DNA of 64,000 nucleotides from IMG/VR virus record IMGVR_UViG_3300021363_000001, positions 13,622 to 77,621 of that record. One strand, written 5' to 3'. Shown here in pieces: positions 2,071 through 44,727 of this stretch (position 1 is its first letter; every line of letters starts with the position of its first letter). Below the pieces are notes generated by a model. That model had not been told where the DNA came from. It saw only the letters and a program-made list of their open reading frames with translations, and did not search any database. The translations under genes were made by a program, and so were the position numbers. The stretch is from a virus (Duplodnaviria; Heunggongvirae; Uroviricota; Caudoviricetes).

Positions 2071-3231
2071 TTATTTGGAAGGTGACAAATTATTTTCAGC
2101 GGGGAAGTAAGACATATTTATCTGCAGGTCTTCACTGGAATCACCATATGATATATAGGTTCTTTTGAAAGTAGCTTTTATCAGTGCCGGAAGTTTCTTT
2201 GCCGTAGTCATCTGCACTACTCCATTTATAGTTACGGGAAATTCATGATCAGTCTGGTCAGCGCATGTGATAACAAGATTTTTCCCAGCCATAGAAGAAT
2301 AATTATAATCACATTCCAGTGCATAATTCAGTAGATCAATATCAAGTGGGGTGATCCGGAACTTGCCTTGATACTTATCTTCACGGTTGGTTTCATTCAA
2401 GTTATTCAACAGCTCCAGTGGCGGCTGATCTTCATTGGTCATGTATCCCTTACCATGACGTGTCTGATATGTCCTGGTTACATAATAAACATCTTTGATG
2501 CCAGGATAAATACTTAGCGCATTACGTGAAGTAGTATGAGACCTGGTTACGTTAGGGAAGAAGCCAAAATCCTGGTCAAGCATTATTCCTTGTGAGCCCT
2601 CAAAGACTGGATCGTAGCCAGAGAGAAAATCGTATGAGTTAATCACAACAATTTTTTTCCGCAGCTCTCTCACGCATCCAACAAAATATCCCAAACTATA
2701 TGCATTGTCAGCATCGAAGATTTCTTTATATCCGTAATATTCAGAAATGTGTTTAAGTTTTTGATGCAGAATGTTGTCATAAAATAAATCCTGCACATGC
2801 AATTTAAAGAACGATTCATGTCTTTGATGTGTGGCTCCAAAGCCAACGCCAACGCTGCCAAAAGATTTTACACTCTCCTCGGCAACTCTATTGAAATAAA
2901 TATCATATGGAGTGGTCACCGGGCATAACGCATGCACATAAATTCGTGGCGCTTGATCTAACATTTTTTTTAAGATGTGCCACTCATTCATAAAAGCTAC
3001 TGGAGAAAAAGTACAGTAGTGGCTCCATACAGTCGGAACATGTTGCAGCGTTCCTGCACCGAAGGAAGAAAATACATGACGCTTCCCATCTCTCACAACA
3101 GTATGTCCAGCCTGGTGCCCACCACTGAAGCGGACAACAATAGGGTTCGGCTTTTGAGAGCACAGGTAAGATGTTACCAGTCCCTTGCCTTCATCACCGT
3201 ATCCGAGCCCGATTATTACGCTTGCTGACAT
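2071..3231 (-). CDS. adenylosuccinate synthetase family protein (PurA-like, possible PurZ), 386 aa
   Basis: N-terminal GDEGKG P-loop, GGHQAGHT, VFEGSQGxxLDxDFG...TRSHTTS and TRxxGxG motifs typical of PurA family; shorter than bacterial PurA. Confidence 0.8.
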   Translation of the reverse strand: MSASVIIGLGYGDEGKGLVTSYLCSQKPNPIVVRFSGGHQAGHTVVRDGKRHVFSSFGAGTLQHVPTVWSHYCTFSPVAFMNEWHILKKMLDQAPRIYVHALCPVTTPYDIYFNRVAEESVKSFGSVGVGFGATHQRHESFFKLHVQDLFYDNILHQKLKHISEYYGYKEIFDADNAYSLGYFVGCVRELRKKIVVINSYDFLSGYDPVFEGSQGIMLDQDFGFFPNVTRSHTTSRNALSIYPGIKDVYYVTRTYQTRHGKGYMTNEDQPPLELLNNLNETNREDKYQGKFRITPLDIDLLNYALECDYNYSSMAGKNLVITCADQTDHEFPVTINGVVQMTTAKKLPALIKATFKRTYISYGDSSEDLQINMSYFPAENNLSPSK

Positions 3232-3844: not shown

Positions 3845-4702
3845 TTATAAAATCATGTTTGGTTTTGACTCATCCTTTCCGGGAGCTGCACTGGAAGGGA
3901 GGTTTGACAGAATAATGTGTGAGATCACTCTTGGAATTGTAGTGTAATCTTTAACGATTATAAGATTTTGGCCAAGCATTTCTTTCCATGCAGGATGCAC
4001 ATCTTCACGGCCACTTCTGTGGTCAAGGTGAATGTGATATACATGATTTAGCGCCTTGGCAGAGGAAAGTAATTGTTCGCGGGTATATGTTCCCTGGCCC
4101 ACAGCCGAAGTTCCCATGATTGATGAGAGCGCTGAAAGCGGGATTGAAGGCAGACAAGGCTCATCACCAATAGTGAACACAAATCCTTTTTGCTTACGTT
4201 TTTCAAATGCATCGGTCTTGATATGATTTCCCGCAAAATACCAGGCAAGCAAATAGCTTTCTCCAGCATTGCCGCCGCCATTTCCCTCAAGCCATGTTCT
4301 TGTCAACCACATATCAAGTTCTGCGTCTCCTGATTCGAACTGTCCTATTTGAAGTGGAGCCAGATCACATTCATGGTCGCCAATAGCACCAAACATTAAT
4401 GCTACGTCAGGAATTCCGTTCTGAAGAAATGAACTCATCAGTGTGGGTAGTCCATCTTTAATCATTAAGTGAGGAATACTACCCATGCTTCCGGTTACAT
4501 CCAGATACAGCTGTACTGGTATAGCGTTTGGATGTGTTGCAGAATCACGACATTCACGAAAGATAACTCCGGAAGGATTCATGTCTTGATGAATTTTCCG
4601 TGCTTTATTTTGTTTAAATATTTCATCTACAGGTGCAGTGAAATATGCGTCTTGTGTTGCTCTCATAGAGCGACTTGAAACTGAATATTCTGAGTGTCCC
4701 AT
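3845..4702 (-). CDS. von Willebrand factor A (vWA) domain protein
   Basis: LYLDVTGSM (DxSGS-like MIDAS motif) followed by alpha/beta pattern; 285 aa. Confidence 0.5.
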   Translation of the reverse strand: MGHSEYSVSSRSMRATQDAYFTAPVDEIFKQNKARKIHQDMNPSGVIFRECRDSATHPNAIPVQLYLDVTGSMGSIPHLMIKDGLPTLMSSFLQNGIPDVALMFGAIGDHECDLAPLQIGQFESGDAELDMWLTRTWLEGNGGGNAGESYLLAWYFAGNHIKTDAFEKRKQKGFVFTIGDEPCLPSIPLSALSSIMGTSAVGQGTYTREQLLSSAKALNHVYHIHLDHRSGREDVHPAWKEMLGQNLIIVKDYTTIPRVISHIILSNLPSSAAPGKDESKPNMIL

Positions 4703-5088
4703 TAGCTTTCGAATAAAAGTTTATAACGTGATCTTGCAATGTCTAACGTGATTTCAAGGTTGCGCAGTTCAACTCCAATCTGAATGTCTTTGCTGACAAA
4801 TTCTTTGGATTTAAAATCAGACGCCAGCACAAGGGAGTCTGCGGTAGTAGGGCTCAGGTCGAGCATTGATTCGCGTTCGCGCTTGAGCTTTTTGATTTTC
4901 AGCTCCAGGTCTTCCACCTCTCGCTTATAAATCATCTGGGCGTCCTCAGCGATGGCAATCGCCCGGTCTTCGCGTATCTTTTTGTTGTTACGCACCAGGG
5001 AACCAACGAATGCTCCCTTCATGGAAGCTAATGTGGCTTCCGATTCATTTGTTTCAGTCATAATAAATGGGTTTGGATTATGTTGCAA
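4702..5088 (-). CDS. hypothetical coiled-coil protein
   Basis: ORF 128 aa, charged heptad-rich middle; start-stop overlap with upstream gene. Confidence 0.4.
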   Translation of the reverse strand: MQHNPNPFIMTETNESEATLASMKGAFVGSLVRNNKKIREDRAIAIAEDAQMIYKREVEDLELKIKKLKRERESMLDLSPTTADSLVLASDFKSKEFVSKDIQIGVELRNLEITLDIARSRYKLLFES

Positions 5089-6977: not shown

Positions 6978-7721
6978 ATGAGTGAAGAAATAAATCCTGG
7001 CTTCTACCATGAGGTATCGTATGAGCAGCTGATCTCAAGTGTGAAGGCTGAACTAAAAATCGAAGTTTCGGACTCAGACATAATTTTTGAAAAATGGCTG
7101 AACGAAGGAATCAGGTCTGTAGATGCGTTAAGCATTTTTTCCAAATGCACAGCAGTATTACCCATTCATGATAACATGGCTGAATTACCGTGTGGATTTT
7201 TTAGAATGATTGCATGTACGCTTGGAGGGAATGGAGCTAATTGTATTTCTGCGATATACGTTGATCTGCCATTTCTCACATCGTGCGGCTGCGCACCGAT
7301 AATTAACAGCACCGGTATTTTCAATACACAAGGACTTTATGAAATTCAGAATGGAAGAATTTTTTTCCACTCTGATTTATTTACAACAGTTTCAACTACC
7401 AATGGGCCACAGACAATCACCACTACGCTTCCGATCACAGAGTGTACAATAAGTTATTTTGGATTTAATGTTACGGAGGATGGTCTGTTAAAAGCGTACC
7501 AGGATATGGAGCGTGGCTTGACTGCTTATGTGTGTTGGAGATATACGCGACAGAATTTTCGTGAGTATCCACAATACATTTCCGAAGGCTACCGACAGGA
7601 ATGGGTGGCACAAAAAAAATGGTTGCGTAGTGTGGCCTTCCAGAATGATTTCCGAAATACAAAACGTCAGATTGCGGAAATTGTGAATGCCATGGTTGTG
7701 GACAAGAATTTTTTACCATAG
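6978..7721 (+). CDS. hypothetical virion-associated protein
   Basis: ORF 247 aa in late block. Confidence 0.4.
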   Translation: MSEEINPGFYHEVSYEQLISSVKAELKIEVSDSDIIFEKWLNEGIRSVDALSIFSKCTAVLPIHDNMAELPCGFFRMIACTLGGNGANCISAIYVDLPFLTSCGCAPIINSTGIFNTQGLYEIQNGRIFFHSDLFTTVSTTNGPQTITTTLPITECTISYFGFNVTEDGLLKAYQDMERGLTAYVCWRYTRQNFREYPQYISEGYRQEWVAQKKWLRSVAFQNDFRNTKRQIAEIVNAMVVDKNFLP

Positions 7722-7729
7722 GAAAATAA

Positions 7730-10700
7730 ATGGCTAAAAAGTATTTAACTTTTCTTCTAGACTCTGTAAATTTTCTCCTTGGCATGAACAAGGATGATGA
7801 CTATCCTTTTAAAAAAAAGGAGCAGTATCTGCATGGATTAAATATTCGTCACGTCTCTCAATTCGGCAATACCGGCAGAGCAATACAAAACGTTCTTGGC
7901 AACAGGCATTCATTTGATATAGGCGTTGTCGTTGCAGCCGATAAGTTATTCCATATTCAGATGACGGCTCCTGCAACGCCACAGAATTATACCTGGGAGA
8001 TACGTGATGGCAACCAGAATGTGATGACCACGGTATCGCTGACTACCACTGCAAGCGATATAAACACAACGCTTACAAATGCAGTTGCAGCTTTTAATCT
8101 GGCTATGGCTGCGGTAACACCGACACAGACATTTGTAGTTGGATCGCAGACAACAGGATCAAGCACAGGGTATGTTTCTTTTTCAGTCACTACAATTCCT
8201 GGATGGGAGTATTATGTTGTAAGTACGGGCACTGATGTAAGCGCGGTTGAAGTTGTGGTTGAGGCAACGGATGCTTCAATGACAGGGGTGCCGGTTGTGA
8301 TCGGCAGTTATGATCTGCTTGGAGATTTATTTGTGTATAGCACTACTCAGGCTAATCTACCACAAACGTTTTCAGACATCGCATCTGTATCTAGTAGTGG
8401 TGGACAATACGAAATCACTACTACAAATGCGCATTCATTCACTGACCTGAGCGCCATTACCATTTCAGGAGTCACTGGCGTTGCGGCTCCAAACAATCTC
8501 AATGGCTACTGGATTATTAATGTCACATCATCCACAACATTTGTTTTGCTTGGATCATTATTCATTGTCGGTTCTGTTTTAACAAATGCTCAGTATACGG
8601 TCAACGTAAATGGTTATGGTGAAATAGGCATTGGTGTTGAAGATAACAACAGCGGTCTCTGGACGTACACGCGCCTGCTTGGAACCAAGGAATTAAATTT
8701 CAGAATCCAAAAACAGATTGATGTTTACCAGGAGCGCAATGCATTTTTGACCAGCTGCTATTTTACCGATGACTATAACCCACCCAGGGTATTTTATTAT
8801 AAAGGGCCGTTCATAACTGATGGAGCAATCCATGCGATAAATCCTTTGGGGCAGTATGCGTATGGTTCAATCAATCAGGAAACGTTGCTTACCGCTATTC
8901 AGACAAATGTAATTTTTACATTCACGCAGCAGCTGCAATCCGGAGGGGCTGTGCTTAGCGGTAACTGGAGATACGCAATTCGGTTTTTGACAGAGAGCCT
9001 GACAGCAACAGCCTGGACTGATCTGAGTAATCCGATTAATGTCTATACTCCAACAGATGTCTTTACAGACATCGCAAGTGCAGAGAACTTGTTTGGCGAT
9101 AACGAAAATACAACCACCTCTAAGATTAACGAATTTTTAATCTCAGGAATAATCCCTGGCTTGTTCAAATACGTAGAGCTTGCAGGAGTAAATTATTTAG
9201 ATACAACGCAAACATCTCAGATTATAAAACGCGATTTGCTGCTTGGTGGGAGCACGCAGATAATTCAGCATTTAGGAACCGAAACAGCAAGCACCGATCT
9301 TGATGCTGGTCAATTAAATTTTCAGCCGGTAAGCATTGCAACAGCAAAGAATATCAATGCTATAGATAACAGGTTGATTGTTTCAAACATCACAACTCTT
9401 GCCGATAAAGACTTCACGAATTTTTCGCGAAGCCTGACACATAAGTTAATTATCAAGACTCATGATGGTATCTTATCTCGATACGCTGGTGATTTAAGAA
9501 TTGGCGAGTATCAGCTGCCCGACAATGTTTATTCATTCGTTGGGTATATGCTCAATGAGACATATCGCTATGGAATAAAATTCAAATTAAAAGGCGGTGG
9601 GTATACTGAGATTTATTGGATTGACGACATCCGTTTTGACGATTATATTCAGGCTGGCGCTGCATTCAATCGCGGGAATCCTTTTGGCGACAATAGACGT
9701 GTAGTTGGTGGCTCACTGCCAAATATGGATTTAACCAATAATGACACCTCTGAGGTATACAACTTTGGAATCCAGTTTAGCAATATCAACTGGTTTTATA
9801 TTATTGATGGAGTACCACTTGCAAACATTGTCGAGGAGATCATCATTGAGCGCGTTGAGATGATTCCAAATTTCCGTGAAGTGTTGGGTAGGGGGATTGC
9901 AATATTAGGAAGTCAAGCACCTGCTTTTGGAATAGGGCCGGTACAAACACAAACCGTAACTGCAGCTATTCATACAAGAAATGCTGTAAGCATACTTACC
10001 GATCCATTTGTCGCTGGGCCAACTAAGAATATGGGTGATTATTTTGCAGCAACAGGATTGCGATTCGATAATCCTGTCGGCACGCCCACTACTCTTAACC
10101 CTGCATATCCAAATGGAAGTGTATCAACTCTTAATTTTCTGACAGGATCACTCTATATTCCTGACTGGTTATTTGGTGAATCCGATTGGTCATTTATTCC
10201 TGGAGATCAGATTGTAAATTTTGGTGCTCCACCAACCATTGATTACAGCGGGTTGACAGCGGTTGGCATTGGAGGCAATGCATTAAGCGCAGATGCAGAG
10301 TTCTATAATAATTATCGTGAGGTGAATGGACGCTGTACTGTTGGGTTTGGGCCAGGTGCGCAAGCGTTTTTTATTCCACTGAATGAGTCAATGTACGTTG
10401 GCACCGGTTCGATTGGGACATTTACAACAATAGCAAATACTACTTATTCAAAAAAATACGCTATTGCCACGACATTTCTTGGCTTCCCTTCTATTGAAGA
10501 GTCGGCACTTATGGATATGCCAGGCAGCCCGGTCTTTCTTTCATCAGCTGCACTGGTATCAGGTACAATATTCTCAAGTGATTTTTCCATTCGCATGGTT
10601 GAAATTTACCGTCCTAAAAATAATAAGTTCGGTGATATAGCCAATAGTAAATATATTCCTACTGGCCATTCGTTAAAATTTAACAGGACAGCATTGGTTG

Positions 10701-12301
10701 ATACTGATGTTTGGGGTGGCGATGTAATGTCACAGAAAACATGGCTCTTACATAAGCAAACAACTGAATATTTAATAAACCAAGGGGCCGATCCTGCAAC
10801 ATGGCTCCAGTCTGGATTGTGTGGTGGCTTATCGTTTTATTCTCAAAATCATGTTAACTCAGAAATGATTAACAGGAATGATTCTGGCAAAGGATATAAG
10901 TACCCAAAAATTTCTGAGATCGAATGGATGAATGGAATTGCAACAAATGCTTTTGATGTGGCTTACAATCATGGCTATGATATTCGTAATCAAATAAACA
11001 GCGACATCGCTTTTGACCCGAACAGCATTCGCACCAATGATCTGTCAACGCGCGCCTACTACAGTGACCTCAAGCCAATAGATAGCGTTCAGGACAACTA
11101 CCGCGTGATCCTGCCCCTCAACTTCCATGACCTGGACTTGAGTGCTGGAGAAATCATGCATCACGTAAATCTCAACGGTGAGCTTTTCACATGGCAGGTG
11201 AGAAAATTACAGCGCCAGTATTTCAATACCCGTGGTCAATTACAAACTACCAATAACCTGAGTATTGTCATCGGTGATGGATCGGTATTAACAAGGGACG
11301 GCCAGACAATCAGCGTCATCGGGACAACTCATAAGTGGAGCGTGATACGCGGCAAGAGTCAAGGAGGCAATGATGTGTTCTACTGGATCAACACTGAATT
11401 AAAAAAAGCATGCAGAATCGCTCTTGACGGCACGGTATCTCTGGCAGACATCGAAGGCATGCAAAGTTTTTTTGCAAATAACCTGCGCTGGGTATCTACG
11501 CATGACAACCCGGCCAGCGGCCAGGGGATTGCTGGAGTATGGGATGACAGGAATTTTGAAGCGCTCTGGACGATGCGCGGCCACAAGAATGTATCAGAAT
11601 GGAATTCGGTTATACCATATTCGGTTGGCAGCGTTGTTTCATATGCGCCAACGGTGTTCAGCACATATGAGCAGACCGGTGAGCTATACATCTCTTTGGT
11701 GAATACCAATGTAGGCCACAATCCTCAAACATCTACTACGCAATGGCAGCTCATTCCACATACGGACAATAATTACTATAACGAATACACCATTGCTTTC
11801 AATGAGCAGAAAAATCAATTCACGACCTTCTATACTTTCAAGCCAACGATTTATTTAAAGTATAAAGATGTTTTCCTTAGCCCTGATCCGCAAGCGCCAA
11901 ACACAATTTACCTGCACAACATCGGTGGCTACTGCCAGTGGTACAATGGGAATAATGAAGATGGCCACCTGACCCTTGTTTACAGCGGGGATAACAATAT
12001 GGTTAAGATGCTGCATGCATTGCTTGTTGGCGTGAAGCCGGCTCCTACACGAATAGACATCTCAACACAGGATCACCACACATTTATGCTTACCAGCGAT
12101 TTTGACGACATGAACGGGAACTGGGTGTGTGGGATCAAGAATGACACATTAACTTCTGGAACAGGCTCAACAGAAGACGACACCAGTAAGCTCTGGGGAC
12201 AGTATGCATTAATTGACATAACATTCCAACAAGGAGTGCTGCAGGTTGTGAATAGCGTAATATTAAAATTTGCACCGGTAACAAGAGACTATAGATCATG
12301 A
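7730..12301 (+). CDS. giant virion protein (1523 aa), Thr/Ser/Asn-rich, putative tail/receptor-binding or decoration protein
   Basis: Uninterrupted 4.6 kb ORF with T/S/N-rich beta-like segments. Confidence 0.6.
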   Translation: MAKKYLTFLLDSVNFLLGMNKDDDYPFKKKEQYLHGLNIRHVSQFGNTGRAIQNVLGNRHSFDIGVVVAADKLFHIQMTAPATPQNYTWEIRDGNQNVMTTVSLTTTASDINTTLTNAVAAFNLAMAAVTPTQTFVVGSQTTGSSTGYVSFSVTTIPGWEYYVVSTGTDVSAVEVVVEATDASMTGVPVVIGSYDLLGDLFVYSTTQANLPQTFSDIASVSSSGGQYEITTTNAHSFTDLSAITISGVTGVAAPNNLNGYWIINVTSSTTFVLLGSLFIVGSVLTNAQYTVNVNGYGEIGIGVEDNNSGLWTYTRLLGTKELNFRIQKQIDVYQERNAFLTSCYFTDDYNPPRVFYYKGPFITDGAIHAINPLGQYAYGSINQETLLTAIQTNVIFTFTQQLQSGGAVLSGNWRYAIRFLTESLTATAWTDLSNPINVYTPTDVFTDIASAENLFGDNENTTTSKINEFLISGIIPGLFKYVELAGVNYLDTTQTSQIIKRDLLLGGSTQIIQHLGTETASTDLDAGQLNFQPVSIATAKNINAIDNRLIVSNITTLADKDFTNFSRSLTHKLIIKTHDGILSRYAGDLRIGEYQLPDNVYSFVGYMLNETYRYGIKFKLKGGGYTEIYWIDDIRFDDYIQAGAAFNRGNPFGDNRRVVGGSLPNMDLTNNDTSEVYNFGIQFSNINWFYIIDGVPLANIVEEIIIERVEMIPNFREVLGRGIAILGSQAPAFGIGPVQTQTVTAAIHTRNAVSILTDPFVAGPTKNMGDYFAATGLRFDNPVGTPTTLNPAYPNGSVSTLNFLTGSLYIPDWLFGESDWSFIPGDQIVNFGAPPTIDYSGLTAVGIGGNALSADAEFYNNYREVNGRCTVGFGPGAQAFFIPLNESMYVGTGSIGTFTTIANTTYSKKYAIATTFLGFPSIEESALMDMPGSPVFLSSAALVSGTIFSSDFSIRMVEIYRPKNNKFGDIANSKYIPTGHSLKFNRTALVDTDVWGGDVMSQKTWLLHKQTTEYLINQGADPATWLQSGLCGGLSFYSQNHVNSEMINRNDSGKGYKYPKISEIEWMNGIATNAFDVAYNHGYDIRNQINSDIAFDPNSIRTNDLSTRAYYSDLKPIDSVQDNYRVILPLNFHDLDLSAGEIMHHVNLNGELFTWQVRKLQRQYFNTRGQLQTTNNLSIVIGDGSVLTRDGQTISVIGTTHKWSVIRGKSQGGNDVFYWINTELKKACRIALDGTVSLADIEGMQSFFANNLRWVSTHDNPASGQGIAGVWDDRNFEALWTMRGHKNVSEWNSVIPYSVGSVVSYAPTVFSTYEQTGELYISLVNTNVGHNPQTSTTQWQLIPHTDNNYYNEYTIAFNEQKNQFTTFYTFKPTIYLKYKDVFLSPDPQAPNTIYLHNIGGYCQWYNGNNEDGHLTLVYSGDNNMVKMLHALLVGVKPAPTRIDISTQDHHTFMLTSDFDDMNGNWVCGIKNDTLTSGTGSTEDDTSKLWGQYALIDITFQQGVLQVVNSVILKFAPVTRDYRS

Positions 12302-12819
12302 TAGTAGTAACAGGTGCGCCACGCACCGGGACATCGTTATTGATGCAGACCCTTGACCGACTCGGTATCCTGGTGGCAGCTCCTGCGTTTCTGCCTCAGC
12401 ATTATTTCATGAAGCAGTTTAATCCAGGCGGGTTCTATGAGTTCGCCAGCGAGGATGGAATAGAAGATCACCAGTACAAGGGGAAAGCAGTGAAGCTCTT
12501 TGGTGGCCAGCTGGTGAGAACGCCAAAGGAATTCATTAAAAAGCTGATTTGGGTACAGCGCGACAGGAAAAAGGCAATAGAGAGTTATGAGAAAATCCGC
12601 AGCTACCTACCATATGCGGGATTTACCTCAGAACAGATTTATGACGCCAATGTGGACTGTATCAGACTGTATAACTTTCCGGATCGAGCTACATTTCAGC
12701 TGGAGAAAATTCAGGCACATCCTGATATATTTATCCTGGACTTGATTAGTTATTTAGAAATTAACCCAACAGCAGCACAGGTAGAGGCTGCAGAAAAAAA
12801 TATAATAAAATGGAGTTGA
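12298..12819 (+). CDS. sulfotransferase-like P-loop protein
   Basis: N-terminal GAPRTGTSLL resembles the PAPS 5'-phosphosulfate-binding motif (PKSGTT-like); VQRDRKKAIESY resembles the 3'-phosphate-binding RDPRD..S motif. Confidence 0.45.
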   Translation: MIVVTGAPRTGTSLLMQTLDRLGILVAAPAFLPQHYFMKQFNPGGFYEFASEDGIEDHQYKGKAVKLFGGQLVRTPKEFIKKLIWVQRDRKKAIESYEKIRSYLPYAGFTSEQIYDANVDCIRLYNFPDRATFQLEKIQAHPDIFILDLISYLEINPTAAQVEAAEKNIIKWS

Positions 12820-13367
12820 GGAGTAAGATCATTGATGGATTTCCTGATTACCGCATCTATGAAGATGGGAGGGTGCAGAATATGAGAACTGGGAATTATA
12901 TAAAGCAAAGAATAACTAAGGGTTATCCGAATTTTCAGTTATTTGAGGATACCCACAGGTGGGCCAGAACACGAACCGTACACCGTTTATTAGCTATTGC
13001 TTTCATTCCGAATCCAGAAAACAAACCAGAGGTAAATCATATCAATGGCATCAAAGCCGACTTCGGGTTAGAAAATCTTGAATGGGTGACCTGTAGAGAA
13101 AATATAATTCACGCTATAGGTCTTGGGCTAATGAAGCCGACAAATAATTTGCGAATGCTTTCGCTTGAAGAGTGTAGAAAATATTCTGCGCGTGCGCGTG
13201 AGAAGAACAGGAAAAAAGTAGTTGATATTAAAACAAAAACCATATTCCCATCCATTGCCGTTGCTGCAGATTTGTACGGATACGCGAATAGAACACTATG
13301 TAGTTGGTTAGACGGGAGGAGCCCAAATAAAAGTAATTTAAGATTATTAAACACTGTAAATCAATAA
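12810..13367 (+). CDS. HNH homing endonuclease
   Basis: VNHINGIKADFGLENLEWVTCRENIIHA (HNH_3-type H-N-H motif). Confidence 0.6.
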   Translation: MELRSKIIDGFPDYRIYEDGRVQNMRTGNYIKQRITKGYPNFQLFEDTHRWARTRTVHRLLAIAFIPNPENKPEVNHINGIKADFGLENLEWVTCRENIIHAIGLGLMKPTNNLRMLSLEECRKYSARAREKNRKKVVDIKTKTIFPSIAVAADLYGYANRTLCSWLDGRSPNKSNLRLLNTVNQ

Positions 13368-21780: not shown

Positions 21781-22543
21781 TCTGATGCTGGTATTTGCTT
21801 ACGAATACGAAAGCTCCATCAAGAATGATGTAATCTTTCATATCCTGTGTTGCAAGCCGATTAAATGAGTCCTGGACAAGCGGCAGCGCTGCTGACCAGG
21901 AGTGCGTCTTGTAAAAGTCAAAACCAAAAGATGGTTCGCAGGAAGTAAGCAGTGACACTTCAACGATCTTACCGATTGTTTTGGCCTGTGCTGTGATGCC
22001 AATCAAACGGTCATTGCCGGCTTTGGTGATGTAGTTCCACATATCATCGGTGGTTAGCATCTGGGCTGTGGTGCGGTAAGCATGCAAAAGGAATCCATCA
22101 GAATAAGGAACGGAGATGTCGTAATTATAATTCCACCCCTCATAAATCAACGACTTGATACTGGCGTTTTTAAATTTAGGGTATGCGTCTTTCACCCATT
22201 GCCGGTACTGAGCAATGGTGCAGTTATTATTAGCGTACTCTGCTTCCAGCTCAGAGGTAGCGAAGTTTATTTTCTTGCGCACATCCATCTGGCGTGAGTT
22301 GTAAGCAATGATCGAATCAACCTGCGCTGGCGAACTCCAGGCAATACCAATCTTAATTTTCTTTAAGTAGCACTGCAGAACAGCGTTTGGAAAATCAACA
22401 CTGTTCATTTTCGATTCACTGCAATACAGCGATACATAATCCCATCCAGATGGATTGGTTTTGTTTTTACTCATCCAGGCAATCTCAGCTGTTGAGCTGG
22501 ACAGCACATCGTCCAGGGAATTATTGTAGCTTCCGTTAGGCAT
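21770..22543 (-). CDS. hypothetical protein downstream of portal
   Basis: ORF 257 aa, start codon overlaps portal stop. Confidence 0.45.
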   Translation of the reverse strand: MPNGSYNNSLDDVLSSSTAEIAWMSKNKTNPSGWDYVSLYCSESKMNSVDFPNAVLQCYLKKIKIGIAWSSPAQVDSIIAYNSRQMDVRKKINFATSELEAEYANNNCTIAQYRQWVKDAYPKFKNASIKSLIYEGWNYNYDISVPYSDGFLLHAYRTTAQMLTTDDMWNYITKAGNDRLIGITAQAKTIGKIVEVSLLTSCEPSFGFDFYKTHSWSAALPLVQDSFNRLATQDMKDYIILDGAFVFVSKYQHQIKP

Positions 22544-24828
22544 TATTCAGTTGGTTTTTGATTTTCTAATTGTTTAGCATTAAGAATGTGATCAGAGGCA
22601 ATCTGCATTGTCTTTAATTTCTCAGCGTTCTGCAGCGACTGAGCTTGCCTTTGGTTCTGTCCCTGTTCACGGATGAGCGCCTGAATCTGCTGGGCCATCT
22701 GTGTATTCTGCTGTGATAGCTGATCCAGCTGGGCAAGCATTGCCTGTTCGTGTTCGTTCTCTGCTGCCTTTTTCTTAGTGGAATATTTCAGCGTGCGCTT
22801 CAGGTCAGGCATCGTGGTAGCTAATTCAACATCTATATAATCCGGCAGATCAATACCACCCTGCTGGCTCAGGCGGTCAGCGATATTCAATAGGCGCATG
22901 CGCTGCTCTGAGGTAATGAAAGGTGCTACCTTTACAATAGCAAGAGGATTTGAATAGCGTAGCTTCTTTGAGAGCTTTAAGAATTCCACACCGCGCTTTC
23001 CTAAAATTGTTTGCGGGAAATCACTCTCATCTTCAGTATAGAGATACTTAGCAATATCAGTAGCATATTGGATGTTGTGTTGGATGAAGTTGATGTATTG
23101 AGAATACATGGTTGAGTTTCCGCTGCCCTGCTGCACAGCGTTTTGCATCACACCCATGCCCATATATTTCTGAACATTGTCATTACCAAGAGACGTCAAC
23201 GAAACCTTGGCTACTTCCAGCATTTCTTGATTTATGATATTCAATATTTCCTGCAGCCGAAGTACATTCGGATCAAGAGTCATATCCACTTGTTCGATTA
23301 CATTGCCTTCATCGTTGTTCCAGGTCTCAGCCTCGCCACTGTGAGTGAGTACGTGGAATCCTAAAGTAGCCAGGTCATGATCAATTTCTTTTTGGTTGGC
23401 GTTATTGCCAAACTTCCATCCCTTGATGAAATAAGTTTTTCCTTTTGACTTGCCGATCATTTCACGCATCTTAAAACGGATGGCATCATATTCGTCACTG
23501 AGAGCACTCATGCGAGAGGTAACCGAACGAGCCTCGCCATTTAACATATTCGGCAGATACACCTGGATCGGAAGGCGAATCTTACTCTTATCATAAAAAT
23601 CTTCTACCACGTTGTCACAGTATCCGGCCTGGGTTAAGAACCGGTTGCCGATTAATGTTCCCTGGCAGATGTCTTCAATGCCACGGTCTGAGGACTCATC
23701 ACCATTTACCTTACGCAGTTTCACCTGGCCGTAATCATTGATCTCCTCGATACGAGGTGCCGGACGATATGTACGCCAGTATGCAGTCACGCATGCGGCA
23801 ACACCTCTCTGCTGCGCTCCACCATAATACCACCAGCTCATATTACTCATCGTGTTATACGGCACTGTGATGGAAGACTCCTTGGCCATTTCTTCAATCT
23901 CGTCTTTGAATTGAAGCATGTCAGGCCACATGGTGAAAATCTGATTGGGAGTGTAGTACTTAATCGTACCAACGAATTGCGCATAGCGATTGAACTCATC
24001 GTCTTTGCGGATGTCAACAATGAGTTCATAAGGCATCCAGAGATTAAATTTCTGCTTACCCTGCACAACAGTGTGTTCTATACCGCAGCGTCCTGCGGTT
24101 ACCGCATGAATAAAAGCCTGTAGATATTTATCTTCCAATCCATAACAAAGCCACAGGTGACGTGCGATGCGAATGAGATTGTCGGCTTCTTGATCTTTAT
24201 ATCCCTCTTCCATCCAGTACTTGATGTCATCGGCCATCTCAAAATTCTTTCCATCGGAGGAGTCAATGATAGCGCCTTGTGCTGCCAGGGCCTGGAGCTG
24301 ATCTTTTAGTTCATACTGGATCATTAATTTATCCAGCATCATTTTCTTTTCACTCTGCGCATCATCGGTTAAGTTCTCCATGTCGAAATCAATGTTTGCG
24401 ATCATCTGAGAAACCACATCTTTCATTACATTGATGATGGAATATATCTTCTGGCTCCTGATCCATGAAGGCATCAGGTTGGTGGTGGTTACATTTTTTG
24501 TCAGGTGATTGTAATCCAGGTTGGGCTGATACCCGTTGTAATAGCTCATCATGCGGATCATCTGGCGCACCGGTGTTTCATATGGTGTGCCAAACTGCAT
24601 TCCTGATGGAGCGCTGGTGTTGCTGCCTTGTGTTGACAGGTTTGCTGAGGTACCGAAATTTCCCGATGTTACCGTTGTATACCACTGATCGTAAAAAGAA
24701 CAACAGTATTTTATGTTGTCAACGTACCACTTGGCGTCCCGTAAGCTCTCTGGCGCTGCGGGATCAGGCTGGTTATATACACGTCCCTGTTCATCAGGCT
24801 GGATACGATGAACTGAATTTTTATTCAT
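22543..24828 (-). CDS. putative portal protein (761 aa)
   Basis: Size, position next to the terminase operon, Q-rich C-terminal coiled-coil typical of portal barrels; no motif proof. Confidence 0.45.
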   Translation of the reverse strand: MNKNSVHRIQPDEQGRVYNQPDPAAPESLRDAKWYVDNIKYCCSFYDQWYTTVTSGNFGTSANLSTQGSNTSAPSGMQFGTPYETPVRQMIRMMSYYNGYQPNLDYNHLTKNVTTTNLMPSWIRSQKIYSIINVMKDVVSQMIANIDFDMENLTDDAQSEKKMMLDKLMIQYELKDQLQALAAQGAIIDSSDGKNFEMADDIKYWMEEGYKDQEADNLIRIARHLWLCYGLEDKYLQAFIHAVTAGRCGIEHTVVQGKQKFNLWMPYELIVDIRKDDEFNRYAQFVGTIKYYTPNQIFTMWPDMLQFKDEIEEMAKESSITVPYNTMSNMSWWYYGGAQQRGVAACVTAYWRTYRPAPRIEEINDYGQVKLRKVNGDESSDRGIEDICQGTLIGNRFLTQAGYCDNVVEDFYDKSKIRLPIQVYLPNMLNGEARSVTSRMSALSDEYDAIRFKMREMIGKSKGKTYFIKGWKFGNNANQKEIDHDLATLGFHVLTHSGEAETWNNDEGNVIEQVDMTLDPNVLRLQEILNIINQEMLEVAKVSLTSLGNDNVQKYMGMGVMQNAVQQGSGNSTMYSQYINFIQHNIQYATDIAKYLYTEDESDFPQTILGKRGVEFLKLSKKLRYSNPLAIVKVAPFITSEQRMRLLNIADRLSQQGGIDLPDYIDVELATTMPDLKRTLKYSTKKKAAENEHEQAMLAQLDQLSQQNTQMAQQIQALIREQGQNQRQAQSLQNAEKLKTMQIASDHILNAKQLENQKPTE

Positions 24829-25740: not shown

Positions 25741-26021
25741 AAGAAGAAATCAATATCATCTGTAGGCGCGTAGTGGATTCGGTGCATGTTATTTCTGGGT
25801 CAATAAAACTTAAATGTAAGTATTGCGGGGAGCCTGTATACATGGCTCCTACTTCAGTTGATCTTGTTGCCAATAAAAATTATACCGTGCAATGCGATGT
25901 GTGTATTTTCGATGGAGACATTTTTGAAATAATTATTAAATCAGAACCTTTGACGCCTGAACAAATTAAAGAGCTGAAGAAGACGATTTTTCAAGACAAC
26001 ATGAAGGAAAGAAGGAATTAA
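25737..26021 (+). CDS. small zinc-ribbon protein
   Basis: CKYCGE...CDVC. Confidence 0.35.
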   Translation: MKEEINIICRRVVDSVHVISGSIKLKCKYCGEPVYMAPTSVDLVANKNYTVQCDVCIFDGDIFEIIIKSEPLTPEQIKELKKTIFQDNMKERRN

Positions 26022-27985
26022 ACTCTTATCTGCTCCCAAACTTCTTCTGTTCCGTTCGGCCCCATCTTCAGTCCCATCTTCACCCAGCGCATCTGCTGAC
26101 GCACGGTAGGCGCTACGGTGCGCTTCTCAAAATCACCCATTGTAAACAGGGCTGCTAAAAATGAATCGGCAAAGTCTTCATTGGCTTTGCCATAGTCAAT
26201 GAGTGAATCAATCAGTTCTAAAAAAGGAATATTTGCACAGTACTTACGCAAATACCGATTGGCTAGTAGTAGCTGCAGCTCCTTCACTCCATCATTACGA
26301 TAGAACCAAAATTCTGATTTACTGTCATCAGGATTTGTAACTCCAACAATTTTTGGTTTGCGCATCAACAAATTTTTGGCACCCCTGTTAATAAAGTATG
26401 AGATCACAGCCATGCCCTGGCCAACGTTGCGCTCTCCTCCTATTTTGAGCTTCCCAAACTTACCATACCACTTGCATAGCAAGAGAGTAATCATGTATGC
26501 ATCTTCCATCTTATTGGGACGAAACTTAAAGTATGCAACAGGAGTGAACTCGCAGTTGCTTCCTGAGTCAGCGCCTTTGATAACGGTCACAGAGACAGAC
26601 GATCCCTTTTCGGCTCCAGTTTCTTTATCGCTTCCGGCACCGTCAAAGCCAGCGAAGTACTGCACGTTAGCTTTTGGTTCTTCAAAGACGCATACAGCCA
26701 GCGGGTCATCTTTCTTTGCTGTGTATTCAATGTTGCCATGCATCTCATATAGGCGAACACGTTTGATCGGAAGATCACTATTGGTCAAAAGTTTTCTGCA
26801 TGCGCCAAGTAGTTCTCGCACGTCTGATTCGAATATATCTCCGGCAACAATATCAAATGCCTCTTCAACCGTATATGGGAATTGACGTTTGAGTTGGGAC
26901 AGTTTATCTTTTGATGCGCCAGCCCTGGCGTTGTCCAAAAATATTTTTGCCAACGGAACACCTTCTTCATTGACCATATCCATTCCGTATTCATCAATGA
27001 ATCCTTCATATCCCATCCATCCTGGATTGAAGTGACGGTATAATCCAGATTCAGTTCTTCCGTTTGCATCCTTCTTATTGAAATCACTTTGCTCCCATAG
27101 CGTCAAATATGCGCGGCCTCCTTTGAGCTTCATGTTTTCAAGAGTAGTGGGCAGAGACGCCTTTCCCCATATCTTACGTCCAAGTGAAATTTGCATTTTG
27201 TGGGTTTGCCACCACATTTGCAAATCCATGTCTTTGATGGAACCTGCTTCATCCAAATAAACAATATCCATTCTGCGTCCCTGGTATCCTGATTCGCTTG
27301 TCTCTTCAAAATCAATAAATGAATTCAACGCTTTCCTATTTCGTGTCTTGCCAAGTTTTTTACTACGAGTAGTGGGCTCAAAAAACATCAAAGCAGATTT
27401 CGGATCACGATTACCATCATACACTGGAAGAATTTCTTGTGGCATGTGACGGAACGAACGAACTATACGCTGAGTAAATAAATTGTCCTTAGCGTCTTTA
27501 GTACTTATGCTCTGAAGCCCTGCATGGAAATCTTCAGTCATGGATGTGTGATTATATATCCATGAAAGCCTCTTTTCAGTTTTTCCGTTTCTCTTCATCG
27601 TTAGATACATATCTCCATAACAGTTTGGATCATTCCAACAATAATCCATGAAGTAAAAATCTGAAAGGTCGGATTGGCGAAACTGCGGATACCCATCATC
27701 GGTATCAGCGGCGATGTACCACCACTGAAGATAAAACCAATGGTCACCGGTGAGGTAAATTTTTTTCCCGTTATTAAAAAACCATACACCAGTTCTTCTT
27801 TTACGAATATCTTCCTTTATATAATTTACTTGCTGTTGCTCGGTTAAAATGTCCCAGTTTTTTGGAAATGGAGTCCGGTGCCACATCTGCTGCTTCTGTG
27901 GCTTATCAAAAAAAAGACATTCATTGTCTGGTGGCTCTACAGGAAGCTCATACAGAATATCGTCAATGGCTATTTTCTTGTTCAT
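26018..27985 (-). CDS. terL: terminase large subunit
   Basis: Walker A-like KRNGKTE, Walker B VYLDEAG, C-terminal RNaseH-like nuclease segment FAGFDGAGSD; 655 aa. Confidence 0.75.
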   Translation of the reverse strand: MNKKIAIDDILYELPVEPPDNECLFFDKPQKQQMWHRTPFPKNWDILTEQQQVNYIKEDIRKRRTGVWFFNNGKKIYLTGDHWFYLQWWYIAADTDDGYPQFRQSDLSDFYFMDYCWNDPNCYGDMYLTMKRNGKTEKRLSWIYNHTSMTEDFHAGLQSISTKDAKDNLFTQRIVRSFRHMPQEILPVYDGNRDPKSALMFFEPTTRSKKLGKTRNRKALNSFIDFEETSESGYQGRRMDIVYLDEAGSIKDMDLQMWWQTHKMQISLGRKIWGKASLPTTLENMKLKGGRAYLTLWEQSDFNKKDANGRTESGLYRHFNPGWMGYEGFIDEYGMDMVNEEGVPLAKIFLDNARAGASKDKLSQLKRQFPYTVEEAFDIVAGDIFESDVRELLGACRKLLTNSDLPIKRVRLYEMHGNIEYTAKKDDPLAVCVFEEPKANVQYFAGFDGAGSDKETGAEKGSSVSVTVIKGADSGSNCEFTPVAYFKFRPNKMEDAYMITLLLCKWYGKFGKLKIGGERNVGQGMAVISYFINRGAKNLLMRKPKIVGVTNPDDSKSEFWFYRNDGVKELQLLLANRYLRKYCANIPFLELIDSLIDYGKANEDFADSFLAALFTMGDFEKRTVAPTVRQQMRWVKMGLKMGPNGTEEVWEQIRV

Positions 27986-32456: not shown

Positions 32457-35400
32457 ATGCCATTTGTTTCAACCTTATATTCCGAAGGCTTAAATACAAT
32501 TCCAATAGCAGCAGTCTCATTTGCTGAGCTGACTCCTATCATTGAAGACCTCAGAAGAATAAATAATGCCAGTGCTGGTGTGGGGCCGCAAGGCGCTCAA
32601 GGCTCACAAGGAGTGAATGGCGCACAGGGCGCACAGGGGAATCAGGGCACTCAAGGCACACAAGGCTCTGCCGGGACGCAAGGGAGCCAGGGGCCACAAG
32701 GCGTGAATGGAACACAAGGCTCTCAAGGTGGCGCTGGTGCGCAGGGCGCTACTGGCGCTCAAGGTTCGCAAGGATCGCAAGGCGTTCAGGGCTCTCAAGG
32801 CACACAAGGAACACAGGGAACACAAGGAGCGGCTGGAGCCCAAGGGCTACAGGGCCCACAAGGTGTTACAGGTGCTCAAGGTAATCAAGGATTGGCTGGA
32901 GCCCAAGGTACAACAGGTTCGCAAGGCTCACAGGGCGACCAAGGATCACAAGGAGATCAGGGATTTCAGGGCGTAACTGGCGCACAAGGCGCACAAGGCG
33001 CACAGGGTCTTCAGGGTAGCCAGGGGACAACCGGTGCGCAAGGGCCGCAGGGTCAGCAAGGAACTCAAGGAACTGCTGGCGCACAAGGCGCACAGGGTGC
33101 GCAAGGAATACAAGGCACTCAAGGCTTCCAGGGAACTACCGGAGCACAGGGTGCAACCGGCGCTCAAGGAAACCAGGGCACACAAGGTCAGGCCGGAGCG
33201 CAAGGCACACAAGGTTCAGCCGGAACACAAGGCGCTCAAGGCGTGCAGGGATCACAGGGCATTCAAGGTGCGCAAGGTCAGCAAGGCGTTCAAGGAACCG
33301 CTGGAGTTCAGGGTACACAGGGAACCCAAGGCAATCAAGGTTTCCAGGGCACTCAGGGTGGCAGTCTTCCAACCAGCGGCGTGCTTGCGGTACAAACAAT
33401 AACTACCGCTCCGCTTCCGGCAAACACTTATGCCAATGGAGTATTAGGTGTTGGCGCGACCTTAACTGGAAATACAAATGCGGCTCTTGGAGTGGTAGGT
33501 GGAATAACGCCATTGGTTGGAGACCGCATCTTAGTAAAAGATGAGGTTACGCCTTCACGCAATGGTATCTTTGATATGACTCAAGATGGAGACGGCGCAA
33601 CCGTTCCATATATCTTGACTCGTACTACTGACTACGATCAGGCTAATACAGAAGTTTTTCAAGGAACATATACAATCGCTTCTGATCCAGCTGCTACTTT
33701 ATATAATCAGTTCTGGTTGATGTATACGGCTGGCTCAATCACAATGGGAACTTCAAATCTGTTGTGGAGTTTTGCTGGCACTCCTGGCGCTCAAGGCTTC
33801 CAGGGTTTCCAGGGAAATCAAGGCGTGCAAGGAACTCAAGGAGTACAGGGCGCTGCTGGAGTTCAGGGGTCACAAGGATTGCAAGGATCGCAGGGATCGG
33901 CTGGAACGCAAGGTGCGCAGGGTGTTCAGGGCGCTCAAGGGTTACAGGGAAACCAAGGCGTACAGGGAACACAAGGAAATACTGGTGCTACTGGAGCGCA
34001 AGGAGCGCAGGGTTTCCAAGGCATACAGGGCAATCAAGGATTCCAGGGCCGTCAAGGATTTCAAGGCACCCAGGGTGTGCAAGGCGCACAAGGGCTACAA
34101 GGTTCGCAAGGCTCCACTGGAGCACAGGGCCCACAAGGGTTCCAGGGCAACCAGGGAAATCAAGGTGTGCAGGGGCAAAGGGGGGTGCAAGGTGCTCAAG
34201 GATTTCAGGGCCGTCAAGGATTTCAAGGTGTGCAGGGCGCTCAAGGATTGCAGGGAATTCAAGGAGCTACCGGCTTCCAGGGCAATCAAGGCGTGCAGGG
34301 TACTCAAGGGTTTCAGGGAATAACTGGAGCTACTGGAGCGCAAGGGACACAAGGCTTCCAGGGAACACAAGGTGTGGCTGGAGTTCAAGGTTCCCAGGGT
34401 GTTCAGGGTTCTCAGGGAAATCAGGGATTCCAAGGATCGCAAGGCGCAACCGGATCGCAAGGAACACAAGGCGCAACTGGTACTCAAGGTGTACAGGGAA
34501 GTCAAGGCGTGCAAGGAACCCAAGGCTCGCAGGGCACACAAGGAGTGACTGGCGCAACCGGCGCACAAGGGACTCAGGGCACACAAGGTGTGCAGGGAGC
34601 ACAAGGAGCACAAGGCGCAACAGGTTCTACTGGCGCACAAGGAACGCAGGGTACTCAAGGATTTCAGGGAACACAAGGATTTCAGGGAGTAGGTATGACT
34701 CCAATTAATATAACTGTTGCTGCAGCACAGGCGCTTGTAACAGGATCAACTGTGATTCCTGGAGGATGGTATAACGTCACTGACTCATCACAAGCGATTG
34801 ACCCAGGAGATAGAATTTTAGTTCAGGGAACCACCACAAGCACATTTGATCAAACCGCTGTTTACCTTGACAATGTTAATAGCCAGCGCAATGAAATCGT
34901 TTACATCCTTGATGATACGCCTACCGATTCTATCATCATGCGCAGAGATGATTACGCAAATGAAATCTGGGACATAAATAATACCAATACAATTTTCAAT
35001 TTTCCATGGGGAGACCAATCTTGCCATAGCAATATAATCCGCAACGGCATAAGCTGGGCTGGAGTAATTCAGTTCTTCAGCAATAATATTTTGACTGGAG
35101 AAAACATTGCAGTTTCATATGGCGGTGGTGTTGGCGTGCCTACGCTGAGCGACAACATCATGCTTCAGGGATCATCTGTCCAGCTTGCTCCCACCGCTAC
35201 ATTCACCTCAAACACCCTTAATGTAAATGCGCTTATTGTTTGTCAAGGGACAATATCTAATTGCATTTTTGGTGCGGGCGCTGTCATTGCTGACGGTGGC
35301 TTCATCCTCACGGGCTGTACATTCCCATCTGGATTCTCTCTAATTGCTACACAGAATTACACCAATGTAATCTTTGGTGTTGGTACATACACTGCGCTAC

Positions 35401-35702
35401 TTACACAAACAGGCGTTGGTGCGCCAGTTGATACTGTATTAGAAAACACACTGGGGGGAACCGTAGTGTGGGCTTATGTTGGGTCTGGCATTTATACAGC
35501 CACTCTTACAGGTGCCTTTACAGCAAACAAAACTGCTGTTTCAATATCTCAAACATCTTCAGCGCAAGGCACCGGATTTGTTGCTTATGCAGACTGGGTG
35601 AGTGCCAACGTGGTGAGTGTGGCTACTTATGATATAGCTGGCGCTGGCTCTGCTGATGATGTGCTCTTAAATAACTTATTCCAAATACAGGTTTACCCAT
35701 AA
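32457..35702 (+). CDS. collagen-like tail fiber protein (1081 aa)
   Basis: Two long tracts of uninterrupted G-X-Q triplets ([10 protein letters not shown]...) separated by a globular segment; C-terminal beta-rich domain. Confidence 0.75.
32560..34700 (+). repeat. nucleotide-level tandem GGN-NNN-CAR triplet repeats encoding collagen-like (G-X-Q)n
   Basis: Reiterated caaggnncncagggn units over about 0.8 kb and 0.9 kb tracts; a similar tract at 37670-37920 and 38270-38540 in the second fiber gene. Confidence 0.7.
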
Positions 35703-44052: not shown

Positions 44053-44727
44053 CTATCTGGAAATGAGTTCGAATTTCTGATACATCACCTGCACATTTTT
44101 GTGCTCAGAATTTCTTTTGCTTGGCCCGTCCTGCGGGCCGCGCGCAAATACTGTTTTCAGTACATCGCTCAGCCCGTAGGGAACATCTTCTGGGGTGGGG
44201 TTATCTGGCGATTGCAAGTTGATTGGCCCATCACCCTGGATCATGTATTCATAGCTGACGCCAAAGCGTATATGCAGGATTGATTTGATGGTATCACTGG
44301 CGGTGATTTTGCTACTCTCAATGTATGCCCAGTGTGATTGAGTCACCCCTATCTCTGTTGCTATTTCAGATTGTGTCATACCTAAAAAATTTCTGATCTC
44401 TTTGTAACGTGCGCCTATGGCTTGTTTCAGCGTTGGTTCCTGGATGACTTCTTCAATTTTGGGAGGAGGAGTTATGAATAATGGAATGCCGAAATTTTCT
44501 TCAGCATAAAAAAATTGTTTGTTCAGATGGTAGTGTTTAATGAACTTACCAAGCTGATCGTAAGTTATTTTCCTCACACCATTAACGATGTCACGGAGCA
44601 CGTTTAATTGTGTTCCGCAATGCTTTGCAATTTGTGTCTTATTATCATTTGGAAAGCTAACGTAAATGTGATTTAGTGCTTGAGAAAAGCGATCACTTAA
44701 TTGTTTTCTATTACTAACCATGAACAC
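44053..44727 (-). CDS. cI-like repressor with HTH_XRE domain(s)
   Basis: RYKEIRNFLGMTQSEIATEIGVTQSHWAYIES (HTH_XRE) and a second helix-turn-helix-like N-terminal region; divergent from early operon. Confidence 0.65.
   Translation of the reverse strand: MFMVSNRKQLSDRFSQALNHIYVSFPNDNKTQIAKHCGTQLNVLRDIVNGVRKITYDQLGKFIKHYHLNKQFFYAEENFGIPLFITPPPKIEEVIQEPTLKQAIGARYKEIRNFLGMTQSEIATEIGVTQSHWAYIESSKITASDTIKSILHIRFGVSYEYMIQGDGPINLQSPDNPTPEDVPYGLSDVLKTVFARGPQDGPSKRNSEHKNVQVMYQKFELISR

Follow-up and report, generated by a model that had tools for sequence, protein, structure and literature searches.

Adenylosuccinate synthetase, PurA (EC 6.3.4.4), uses inosine monophosphate (IMP), L-aspartate and GTP, while the phage enzyme PurZ converts dGMP, aspartate and ATP to N6-succino-2-amino-dAMP in phages whose DNA contains 2-aminoadenine (Z). 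PurA, PurZ and PurZ0 all use L-aspartate, PurZ uses (d)ATP (PMC8342488), and PurZ co-travels with DatZ, MazZ/DUF550 or DutZ/DmtZ, and DpoZ (PMC8342488, PMC12884076). Within the PurA group, conservation of Asp13 reaches 99%, whereas Ser takes its place in 100% of 147 phage PurZ/PurZ0 proteins, out of 481 viral PF00709 proteins (PMC12884076). Here, we describe a phage gene that, judged by its sequence, would belong to neither group. It lies in a 64,000-nucleotide stretch of IMG/VR record IMGVR_UViG_3300021363_000001 (positions 13,622 to 77,621; "the window" below), together with a gene for a von Willebrand factor A (vWA) protein that accompanies it across phage lineages. The two genes, with window coordinates, are:

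2071-3231, minus strand: predicted PurA-like GTP-dependent ligase, 386 aa (open reading frame, PF00709 match, residue alignment and structure model)
3845-4702, minus strand: vWA-domain partner protein, 285 aa, with a metal-ion-dependent adhesion site (MIDAS) D68-x-T70-G-S72 ... G179-D180-E181 (structure-based)

Relationship to PurA and PurZ

The PurA-like gene is genuine, phage-borne and related to adenylosuccinate synthetase. An uninterrupted reading frame of 386 codons fills positions 2071-3231 exactly on the minus strand, a strand that a first-pass annotation of the window had left unstated, and the plus-strand reading is riddled with stops. The PurA hallmarks quoted in that annotation are all present (GYGDEGKG, GGHQAGHT, VFEGSQG and TRSHTTS), its description of the gene as clearly phage-borne, between a homing endonuclease and a tRNA island, agrees with the gene content detailed below, and its estimate that the protein is about 40 aa shorter than bacterial PurA is close to the gap of 46 aa to E. 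coli PurA (432 aa). The Pfam family PF00709 (adenylosuccinate synthetase) matches residues 5-308 with E = 3.9e-43, and E. coli PurA structures in the PDB match with E ~1e-26. In a Foldseek search with an AlphaFold (AF2) model of pLDDT 91.8, the top matches were bacterial PurA proteins from H. pylori and E. coli, with a template-modelling (TM) score of 0.78 at 22-23% identity, as against 0.62-0.66 for Pyrococcus PurA, 0.63 for S-2L PurZ, 0.54-0.62 for PhiVC8 PurZ and 0.58 for PurZ0. The proposal that the short length reflects an archaeal-PurA-like or PurZ-like protein is at odds with this ranking.

By sequence, the query would not be a canonical PurA. It scores 118.1 bits against the PurA equivalog model TIGR00184 (cut-off 395.55), 125.3 against NF002223 (402) and 105.5 against a further model (445), and it is 21-26% identical to cellular PurA in a MAFFT alignment. 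Identity is 31-33% to PurA-like proteins of Mycobacterium cluster C phages, Vibrio phage Va1 and Rhizobium phage TM30, and the query forms a clade with these proteins in 300 of 300 bootstraps of a neighbor-joining (NJ) distance tree, which was built from 27 sequences, with few references and with distances capped for saturated pairs. The protein thus appears to belong to a large vWA-associated phage clade that is neither PurA nor PurZ.

The first-pass annotation had proposed PurZ as a candidate identity for the gene and suggested that the phage may build Z-DNA. While the assignment to a phage-encoded PurA-family protein stands, we rejected PurZ identity, with the position 13 signature, the PurZ hidden Markov model (HMM), the phylogeny, the fold, the base pocket and the Z-cluster partners all contrary to it, and we regard a PurZ reaction in a Z-DNA phage as extremely improbable. 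Consistent with PurZ are the shorter length of this phage-borne PF00709 protein and its match, at 6e-57, to PHROG 1211, which bears a PurZ-style label; that PHROG, however, pools the cluster C mycobacteriophage "PurA-like" genes together with PurZ. At position 13, the query has Asp (GDEGKG), as do all 91 clade members aligned there, whereas Ser is found in 5/5 PurZ/PurZ0 sequences (S-2L, PhiVC8 and SH-Ab 15497 PurZ, and two PurZ0). The NCBIfam model NF038379 (amino_Aden_PurZ) gives 41.2 bits against a cut-off of 300, over residues 4-134 only. PurZ and PurZ0, with Bacillus phage BpsS-140, form their own 300/300 clade in the NJ tree, and the query falls outside it, in the separate 300/300 clade described above. 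Identity to PurZ is 14-16% in Foldseek structure alignments, and identity to PurZ/PurZ0 is 18-21% with MAFFT. The nucleotide base pocket is of the guanine type: the query keeps D325 and S361 (D333 and S414 in E. coli numbering), and the D333 equivalent is kept in 90 of 92 aligned clade members, while three PurZ sequences have Q/N/N at D333 and F at K331, and two PurZ0 sequences keep the Asp and have Met at K331.

The absence of partner genes, noted in the first-pass annotation for datZ, mazZ and dpoZ in the window, extends to the complete genome. Searches with tblastn and phmmer, using S-2L and PhiVC8 queries, found no relative of DatZ, MazZ, the PhiVC8 DUF550-type protein, DpoZ or the S-2L PrimPol anywhere in the whole circular genome, an outcome that the first-pass annotation had itself named as refuting PurZ, and no HD, MazG, DUF550 or DNA_pol_A Pfam domain was found on scanned open reading frames or in precomputed annotations of the contig genes. 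Two further observations count against PurZ: the phage is, by its gene content, temperate, and the module occurs in host chromosomes, in 236 genome stretches, of which the 80 kept are mostly from Chryseobacterium, Flavobacterium and Tenacibaculum. From these comparisons, we infer that the module does not swap A for 2-aminoadenine in DNA. The statement that most phage PurA homologues are PurZ also fails, both for the 147 of 481 viral PF00709 proteins cited above and for the phage collection searched here, where 204 records match PhiVC8 PurZ versus ~219 that carry the vWA-associated clade.

Database labels invite the same error. In cluster C mycobacteriophages, members of the clade already bear the annotation "PurA-like adenylosuccinate synthetase", yet RefSeq carries the label "2-aminooxy adenylosuccinate synthetase" on more than 200 cluster C mycobacteriophage genes that have Asp13 and lack the Z-cluster; Asp13 genes with this label are found in cluster C mycobacteriophages and in Rhizobium phages (NC_031080, NC_023737, NC_054722). 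The mislabel apparently stems from PHROG 1211, and it wrongly implies PurZ and a Z-genome. A match to PF00709 or PHROG 1211 in a phage does not by itself indicate a Z-genome, a distinction that guards against a common annotation error. As a separate observation, the "purA" of Bacillus phage vB_BpsS-140 (locus L023:2941-4062) encodes a protein with Ser13 that clusters with PurZ/PurZ0 in 300/300 bootstraps, so that this siphophage of an alkaliphilic Bacillus is likely a Z-genome phage.

Substrate-site residues and the vWA partner

The IMP contacts of H. pylori PurA are D12, N37, G119, T121, T230, V264 and R294, plus R135 of the other subunit; the GDP contacts are D12-G16, T41, K322, D324 and S400-402 (PMC11571797, PMC11276676). 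The aspartate-binding loop of that enzyme is 289-294 (PMC11276676), corresponding to 298-305, G-x-T-T-G-R-x-R, in E. coli. In E. coli numbering, the query keeps D13, K16, G17, H41, T42, G127, Q224, T239, D333, S414 and G416, among which H41, Q224 and T239 are H43, Q214 and T229 of the query. Changes are N38 to Q40, T129 to V127, R131 to V, R143 to F141, S240 to R230, V273 to H259 and K331 to C323. An alignment of 93 clade members, in which position 13 is aligned in 91 and D333 in 92, reveals the same division across the clade. The GTP site and the catalytic residues of the first half-reaction are essentially invariant: D13, K16, H41, Q224 and D333 are conserved in 90-100% of members, and S414 in 71/93. 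The residues that hold the IMP 5'-phosphate, namely T129 and, from the second subunit, R143, are gone. Arg is absent at the R143 position in all 93 members (F in the query), and the T129 position is Cys or Val in 87/93; His occupies the V273 position in 93/93, and Gln the N38 position in 90/93. Among the IMP ligands N38, T129, T239, V273, R303 and R143, the query retains T239 only, the R303 position also lacking Arg.

The aspartate loop differs most sharply. The motif [ST]TG[RK]xR is found in 0/93 clade members, as opposed to 3/3 cellular PurA. In its place, the clade has a conserved loop consisting of E-T-N, four variable residues, [YFW], and Q-G-x-F-R (E280-T281-N282 ... Y287-Q288-G289-K-F291-R292 in the query). 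A smaller alignment had presented this segment as an 8-residue deletion, an interpretation we dropped: in the larger alignment, the segment is of similar length (35 versus 36 residues) and its residues are replaced, indicating that the loop is remodelled rather than lost. T301 and R305 are kept in every PurA, archaeal PurA, PurZ and PurZ0 checked, and are lost in the vWA-associated clade alone. Since all the others use L-aspartate, this loss suggests a changed acceptor or a changed mode of acceptor binding.

The second distinguishing property of the clade is its partner gene. The predicted structure of the partner has a vWA Rossmann-like fold in which the MIDAS, D-x-[ST]-x-S ... D, is present. 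No Pfam family matched it even at E <= 1, across 55 family members, and the vWA assignment therefore rests on structure alone; its PHROG, phrog_2971, has no assigned function. The N-terminus is conserved as MG-x3-[YW]-S, with an MG start in 88/89 sequences that are only 32-63% identical, and an aromatic residue at position 6.

Synteny of the two genes was assessed in two sets of loci. The prophage set was anchored on the vWA gene in a species-representative genome collection and comprises the 80 kept of the 236 stretches, which are mostly from Flavobacteriia; the viral set comprises 80 IMG/VR loci anchored on the PurA-like gene. In the prophage set, the PurA-like gene lies downstream of the vWA gene on the same strand in 80/80 loci, at a distance of no more than 300 nt in 79. 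In the viral set, the vWA gene is upstream on the same strand in 77/80, and two of the three exceptions are at contig ends. The arrangement extends to three cultured phages, in which a vWA homologue immediately precedes the PurA-like gene: Vibrio phage Va1 (38% identity, 3e-50), Rhizobium phage RHph_TM30 (35%, 3e-39) and Mycobacterium phage Tonenili (32%, 7e-32). The window has no further gene in common with these loci. In the phage collection, the vWA gene was found in 220 records (Mycobacterium 201, Mycolicibacterium 1, Rhizobium 10, Vibrio 6), and a PurA-like match in 239, which represent the same groups together with true purA on contaminant or host fragments. The vWA gene is thus a near-obligate neighbour of the PurA-like gene across unrelated phage lineages. 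Clustered at 50% identity, the vWA family comprises 1,448 representatives, each a stand-alone protein of about 300 aa; fusions to the PurA-like protein were searched for and none was seen.

In some cluster C mycobacteriophages, the vWA gene is interrupted, four residues ahead of the MIDAS G-D-E, by an intein (Cys ... SN|C) about 250 aa long. An example is gp089 of Mycobacterium phage Quasimodo (locus L184:2794-4611), which reads KGY|C...SN|CIFIGDE where Tonenili has KGYAIFIGDE; this intein-bearing vWA protein is mis-annotated "HNH endonuclease".

Proposed mechanism and alternative explanations

We consider it moderately probable that the protein is a PurA-like ligase that depends on GTP, is coupled to the vWA protein, and has changed either its amine acceptor or the way it binds the acceptor. 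Under this model, GTP would phosphorylate O6 of an IMP-like purine nucleotide, and an amine, bound by the clade-specific loop, would then displace the phosphate and couple at C6. Either the identity of this amine or its mode of binding would depart from that of free L-aspartate in PurA and PurZ. The vWA protein would act as a subunit, either completing the active site in place of the homodimer partner that supplies Arg143 or presenting the acceptor. The reaction would yield an adenine nucleotide substituted at N6, for use in auxiliary or counter-defence metabolism of the phage; that it helps to restore adenine nucleotides when the host mounts a defence is speculation. In this phage, a homing endonuclease gene is inserted between the two genes. 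A stronger version of the model, in which many phage lineages use a new superfamily chemistry for host takeover or counter-defence by joining the GTP-activated purine C6 to an amine other than free L-aspartate, such as the vWA glycine or another amino acid, is tentative, and we think it rather unlikely.

Several points weigh against the altered-acceptor model. The tree comes from a simple distance method with few reference sequences. The loop alignment is ambiguous, giving an 8-residue gap in one run and equal length in the larger one, so that residue correspondence is uncertain. The new loop retains a near-invariant R292, plus Thr and Asn, and could still bind the carboxylates of aspartate. 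Arg occupies the S240 position in 71/93 members, and could replace R143 and restore ordinary IMP binding. Interaction between the vWA and PurA-like proteins is inferred from synteny only, with no fused forms.

These points bear most directly on the possibility that the protein is a genuine adenylosuccinate synthetase, acting on IMP, L-aspartate and GTP as an auxiliary enzyme that boosts or de-regulates the supply of AMP/dATP, with the vWA protein merely stabilising a monomer that lacks the homodimer contact. We regard this as the less likely explanation, albeit one with an appreciable share of the probability. It would account for the conservation of all first-step catalytic and GTP-site residues, for a fold nearest to that of bacterial PurA, and for the NAD-salvage and other metabolic genes that are sometimes near the module elsewhere; T281 and N282 could bind carboxylates together with R292, and R230 of the query could stand in for R143. 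Its difficulty lies in the acceptor site, since T301 and R305, which the L-aspartate users checked all keep, are lost in the vWA-associated clade alone, with the loop motif in 0/93. Moreover, the query falls some 270-280 bits under the PurA equivalog cut-offs, and a dedicated, strictly syntenic vWA/MIDAS partner in at least four phage lineages would be unexpected for a simple metabolic enzyme. The AMP-synthesis auxiliary gene that the first-pass annotation offered as its alternative to PurZ is weakened in the same way, by the rebuilding of both the aspartate loop and the 5'-phosphate site and by the obligatory vWA partner, features that this annotation had not noted.

If the acceptor were not free aspartate, it could be a protein. 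In such a ligase, the alpha-amine of the vWA N-terminal glycine, exposed by removal of Met, or another protein amine would attack 6-phosphoryl-IMP, giving a protein-C6 purine adduct. The MG start retained in 88/89 otherwise diverged vWA sequences, with the conserved aromatic residue at position 6, is consistent with this idea, as are the replacement of the free-aspartate loop, the strict gene adjacency, and the recurrence elsewhere of R2K ATP-grasp peptide ligases and J-domain kinases, which are protein-modifying, as neighbours. The case is purely inferential, however, and we know of no protein-amine acceptor chemistry in the PurA superfamily; the conserved N-terminus may instead reflect translation-initiation context, partner binding or stability. 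We therefore consider a protein-directed reaction improbable. A non-catalytic nucleotide binder, which would soak up or sense, for example, GTP, (p)ppGpp or IMP and act through the vWA protein, is a very slight possibility. PurA active sites bind stringent-response nucleotides, which speaks for such a role, but clade members that are 31-59% identical to the query all retain the catalytic Asp, His, Lys and Gln, a pattern typical of an active enzyme.

The two-gene phage module appears to be widespread and undescribed. It spans about 1,450 vWA clusters at 50% identity, the 236 genome stretches, and phages of Mycobacterium, Vibrio and Rhizobium, and in the searchable literature we found no description of the signature residues of the clade, its remodelled aspartate loop or its vWA partner. 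The predicted enzyme combines the GTP-dependent activation machinery of PurA with a rebuilt acceptor site. With a novel acceptor, the module would represent a new chemistry of nucleotide or protein modification; with aspartate, it would represent a heteromeric, host-independent route to AMP carried by phages. Cultured phages, including Bxz1-like mycobacteriophages and Vibrio phage Va1, make the acceptor question directly testable.

Genomic setting and comparison with known systems

The PurA-like protein is also encoded on a 77,635-bp MEGAHIT contig, ENA ERZ27268094. Loci L001 and L014 of that contig join both ends of the window, with a coordinate offset of 141 nt that equals the assembler k-mer, as expected of a circular genome of about 77.5 kb. 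The source contig thus looks like a circular, complete genome of that size, with a G+C content of 42.9%. Proteins encoded in the window include a crAss-type muzzle and ring, a portal, a large terminase and collagen-repeat fibres, and these structural proteins, together with an integrase and a helix-turn-helix (HTH) repressor, indicate a temperate crAss-like phage. The cassettes nearest to this one are carried by prophages in genomes of Chryseobacterium, Flavobacterium, Tenacibaculum and Cellulophaga. When the first 12 kb were compared with the phage collection by megablast, only tRNAs matched, indicating that there is no close cultured relative, and no DNA polymerase was recognised in the phage element. 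The other features of the cassette and of the phage are:

3194-3817, minus strand: GIY-YIG homing endonuclease, free-standing, 207 aa (PF01541 4.8e-10; PHROG homing-endonuclease families)
4702-5088, minus strand: small helical protein at the cassette head, 128 aa, conserved upstream of vWA
22-1920: tRNA island of 14 genes, ten on the plus strand (22-1353) and four on the minus strand (1617-1920), directly downstream of the cassette
42460-43722, minus strand: tyrosine integrase, Bacteroidota-type (Phage_int_SAM_5 and Arm-DNA-bind_5), with the HTH repressor alongside
44053-44727 (minus strand), 6978-12301 (plus strand), 22543-24828 (minus strand) and 26018-27985 (minus strand): HTH repressor, crAss ring and muzzle, portal, and large terminase

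The GIY-YIG gene sits between the vWA and PurA-like genes, and its last 38 nt overlap the start of the latter. In 6-8 viral contigs that otherwise differ, a GIY-YIG gene likewise occupies this junction (genes of one cluster in seven related loci, representative locus L131:5164-5994), where the end of the endonuclease gene overlaps the PurA-like start or falls within a few nucleotides of it. This recurrence suggests a homing site in the conserved gene pair. The gene for the small helical protein, which has no family match, precedes the vWA gene in all 80 prophage loci and in 42 of the 80 viral contigs; PADLOC also returned no match for the three cassette proteins. A functional link between the tRNA genes and the module was considered and set aside: tRNAs lie within 6 kb of the module in just 12 of 60 related viral loci, and the tRNA island is thus context only. 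Small reading frames lie between the tRNA genes at 961-1143 and 1355-1627, the second with paired Cys-x-x-Cys motifs.

At other loci, the module has facultative neighbours, namely J-domain/protein-kinase-like genes (28 loci, upstream) and R2K ATP-grasp genes (15 loci, directly downstream), and further recurrent ones that encode a HAD_SAK_2 phosphatase, an ATP-dependent ligase, NAMPT, NADAR and a Ro60-like TROVE-vWA protein. Gene sets of this kind are typical of phage islands for auxiliary functions, RNA repair or counter-defence. The J-domain kinase, R2K ATP-grasp, NAMPT, NADAR and Ro60 genes are absent from the present genome. The Ro60-like protein (TROVE and vWA_Ro60) is encoded 1-3.6 kb from the pair in six loci, including that of Vibrio phage Va1 (L006:9372-10880), and the HAD_SAK_2 phosphatases that recur near the pair, along with the ATP-dependent ligases, are of the "RNA repair" type. 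On a 375-kb contig that carries a relative, genes for truncated aminoacyl-tRNA-synthetase-like proteins of class I (MetRS-like, 431 aa) and class II (HisRS-like, 204 aa) lie 3-5 kb downstream of the module (L013:12478-14720).

Elsewhere in the window, a family-2 glycosyltransferase fused to a methyltransferase lies between two large proteins with collagen triple-helix repeats (Pfam Collagen 8e-89 and 3e-27), at 32457-35702, 36091-37332 and 37337-39565 on the plus strand, a region that may be a fibre module carrying its own modifying enzyme. A 627-aa protein with an SPFH/Band 7 domain (6e-23) is encoded in the early/regulatory region (49444-51327, plus strand), and an HNH_3 endonuclease gene, the second mobile nuclease of the genome, lies within the tail/structural module (12810-13367, plus strand).

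Parallels with described systems are partial in each case. In MoxR-vWA, BchI/BchD and NorQ/NorD, the gene for a P-loop NTPase likewise has as its neighbour a gene for a stand-alone cytoplasmic vWA protein whose MIDAS is intact, but that NTPase is an AAA+ chaperone, whereas here it is a BioD/PurA-type ligase with a small-molecule site, and the likeness is architectural only. With bacterial PurA of E. coli and H. pylori, the query shares the fold, the P-loop GDEGKG and the GGHxAGHT switch, as well as D13, K16, H41, Q224, T239, and the guanine-specific D333 and S414. It departs from them in its low identity, sub-cut-off scores and shorter length, in the pairing with a vWA gene, in the loss of R143 and of the aspartate-loop motif, and in having V (V/C in the clade) at T129, Q at N38, His at V273 and Cys at K331.

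The query resembles PurZ and PurZ0 of S-2L, PhiVC8, SH-Ab 15497, and Arthrobacter and Gordonia phages in being a phage PF00709 member shorter than bacterial PurA. PurZ, in contrast to the query, has Ser13, keeps T129, R143 and V273, and has the TT..R.R aspartate loop and an adenine-type base pocket; none of the Z-cluster genes of PurZ phages is in the query genome. The closest parallel is with the "PurA-like adenylosuccinate synthetase" of cluster C mycobacteriophages (Bixzunavirus), the Vibrio Va1/phiKT1024 group and the Rhizobium Kleczkowskaviridae. These phages are large and lytic, while the query phage is a 77.5-kb temperate crAss-like phage of Flavobacteriia; identity is 31-33%, no counterpart of the small 128-aa protein was detected next to the module in the Vibrio, Rhizobium and Mycobacterium loci, and some of these loci add an upstream J-domain kinase. 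Despite these differences, the proteins belong to the same 300/300 clade, and all have D13, His at the V273 position, no Arg at the R143 position, and a vWA gene directly upstream.

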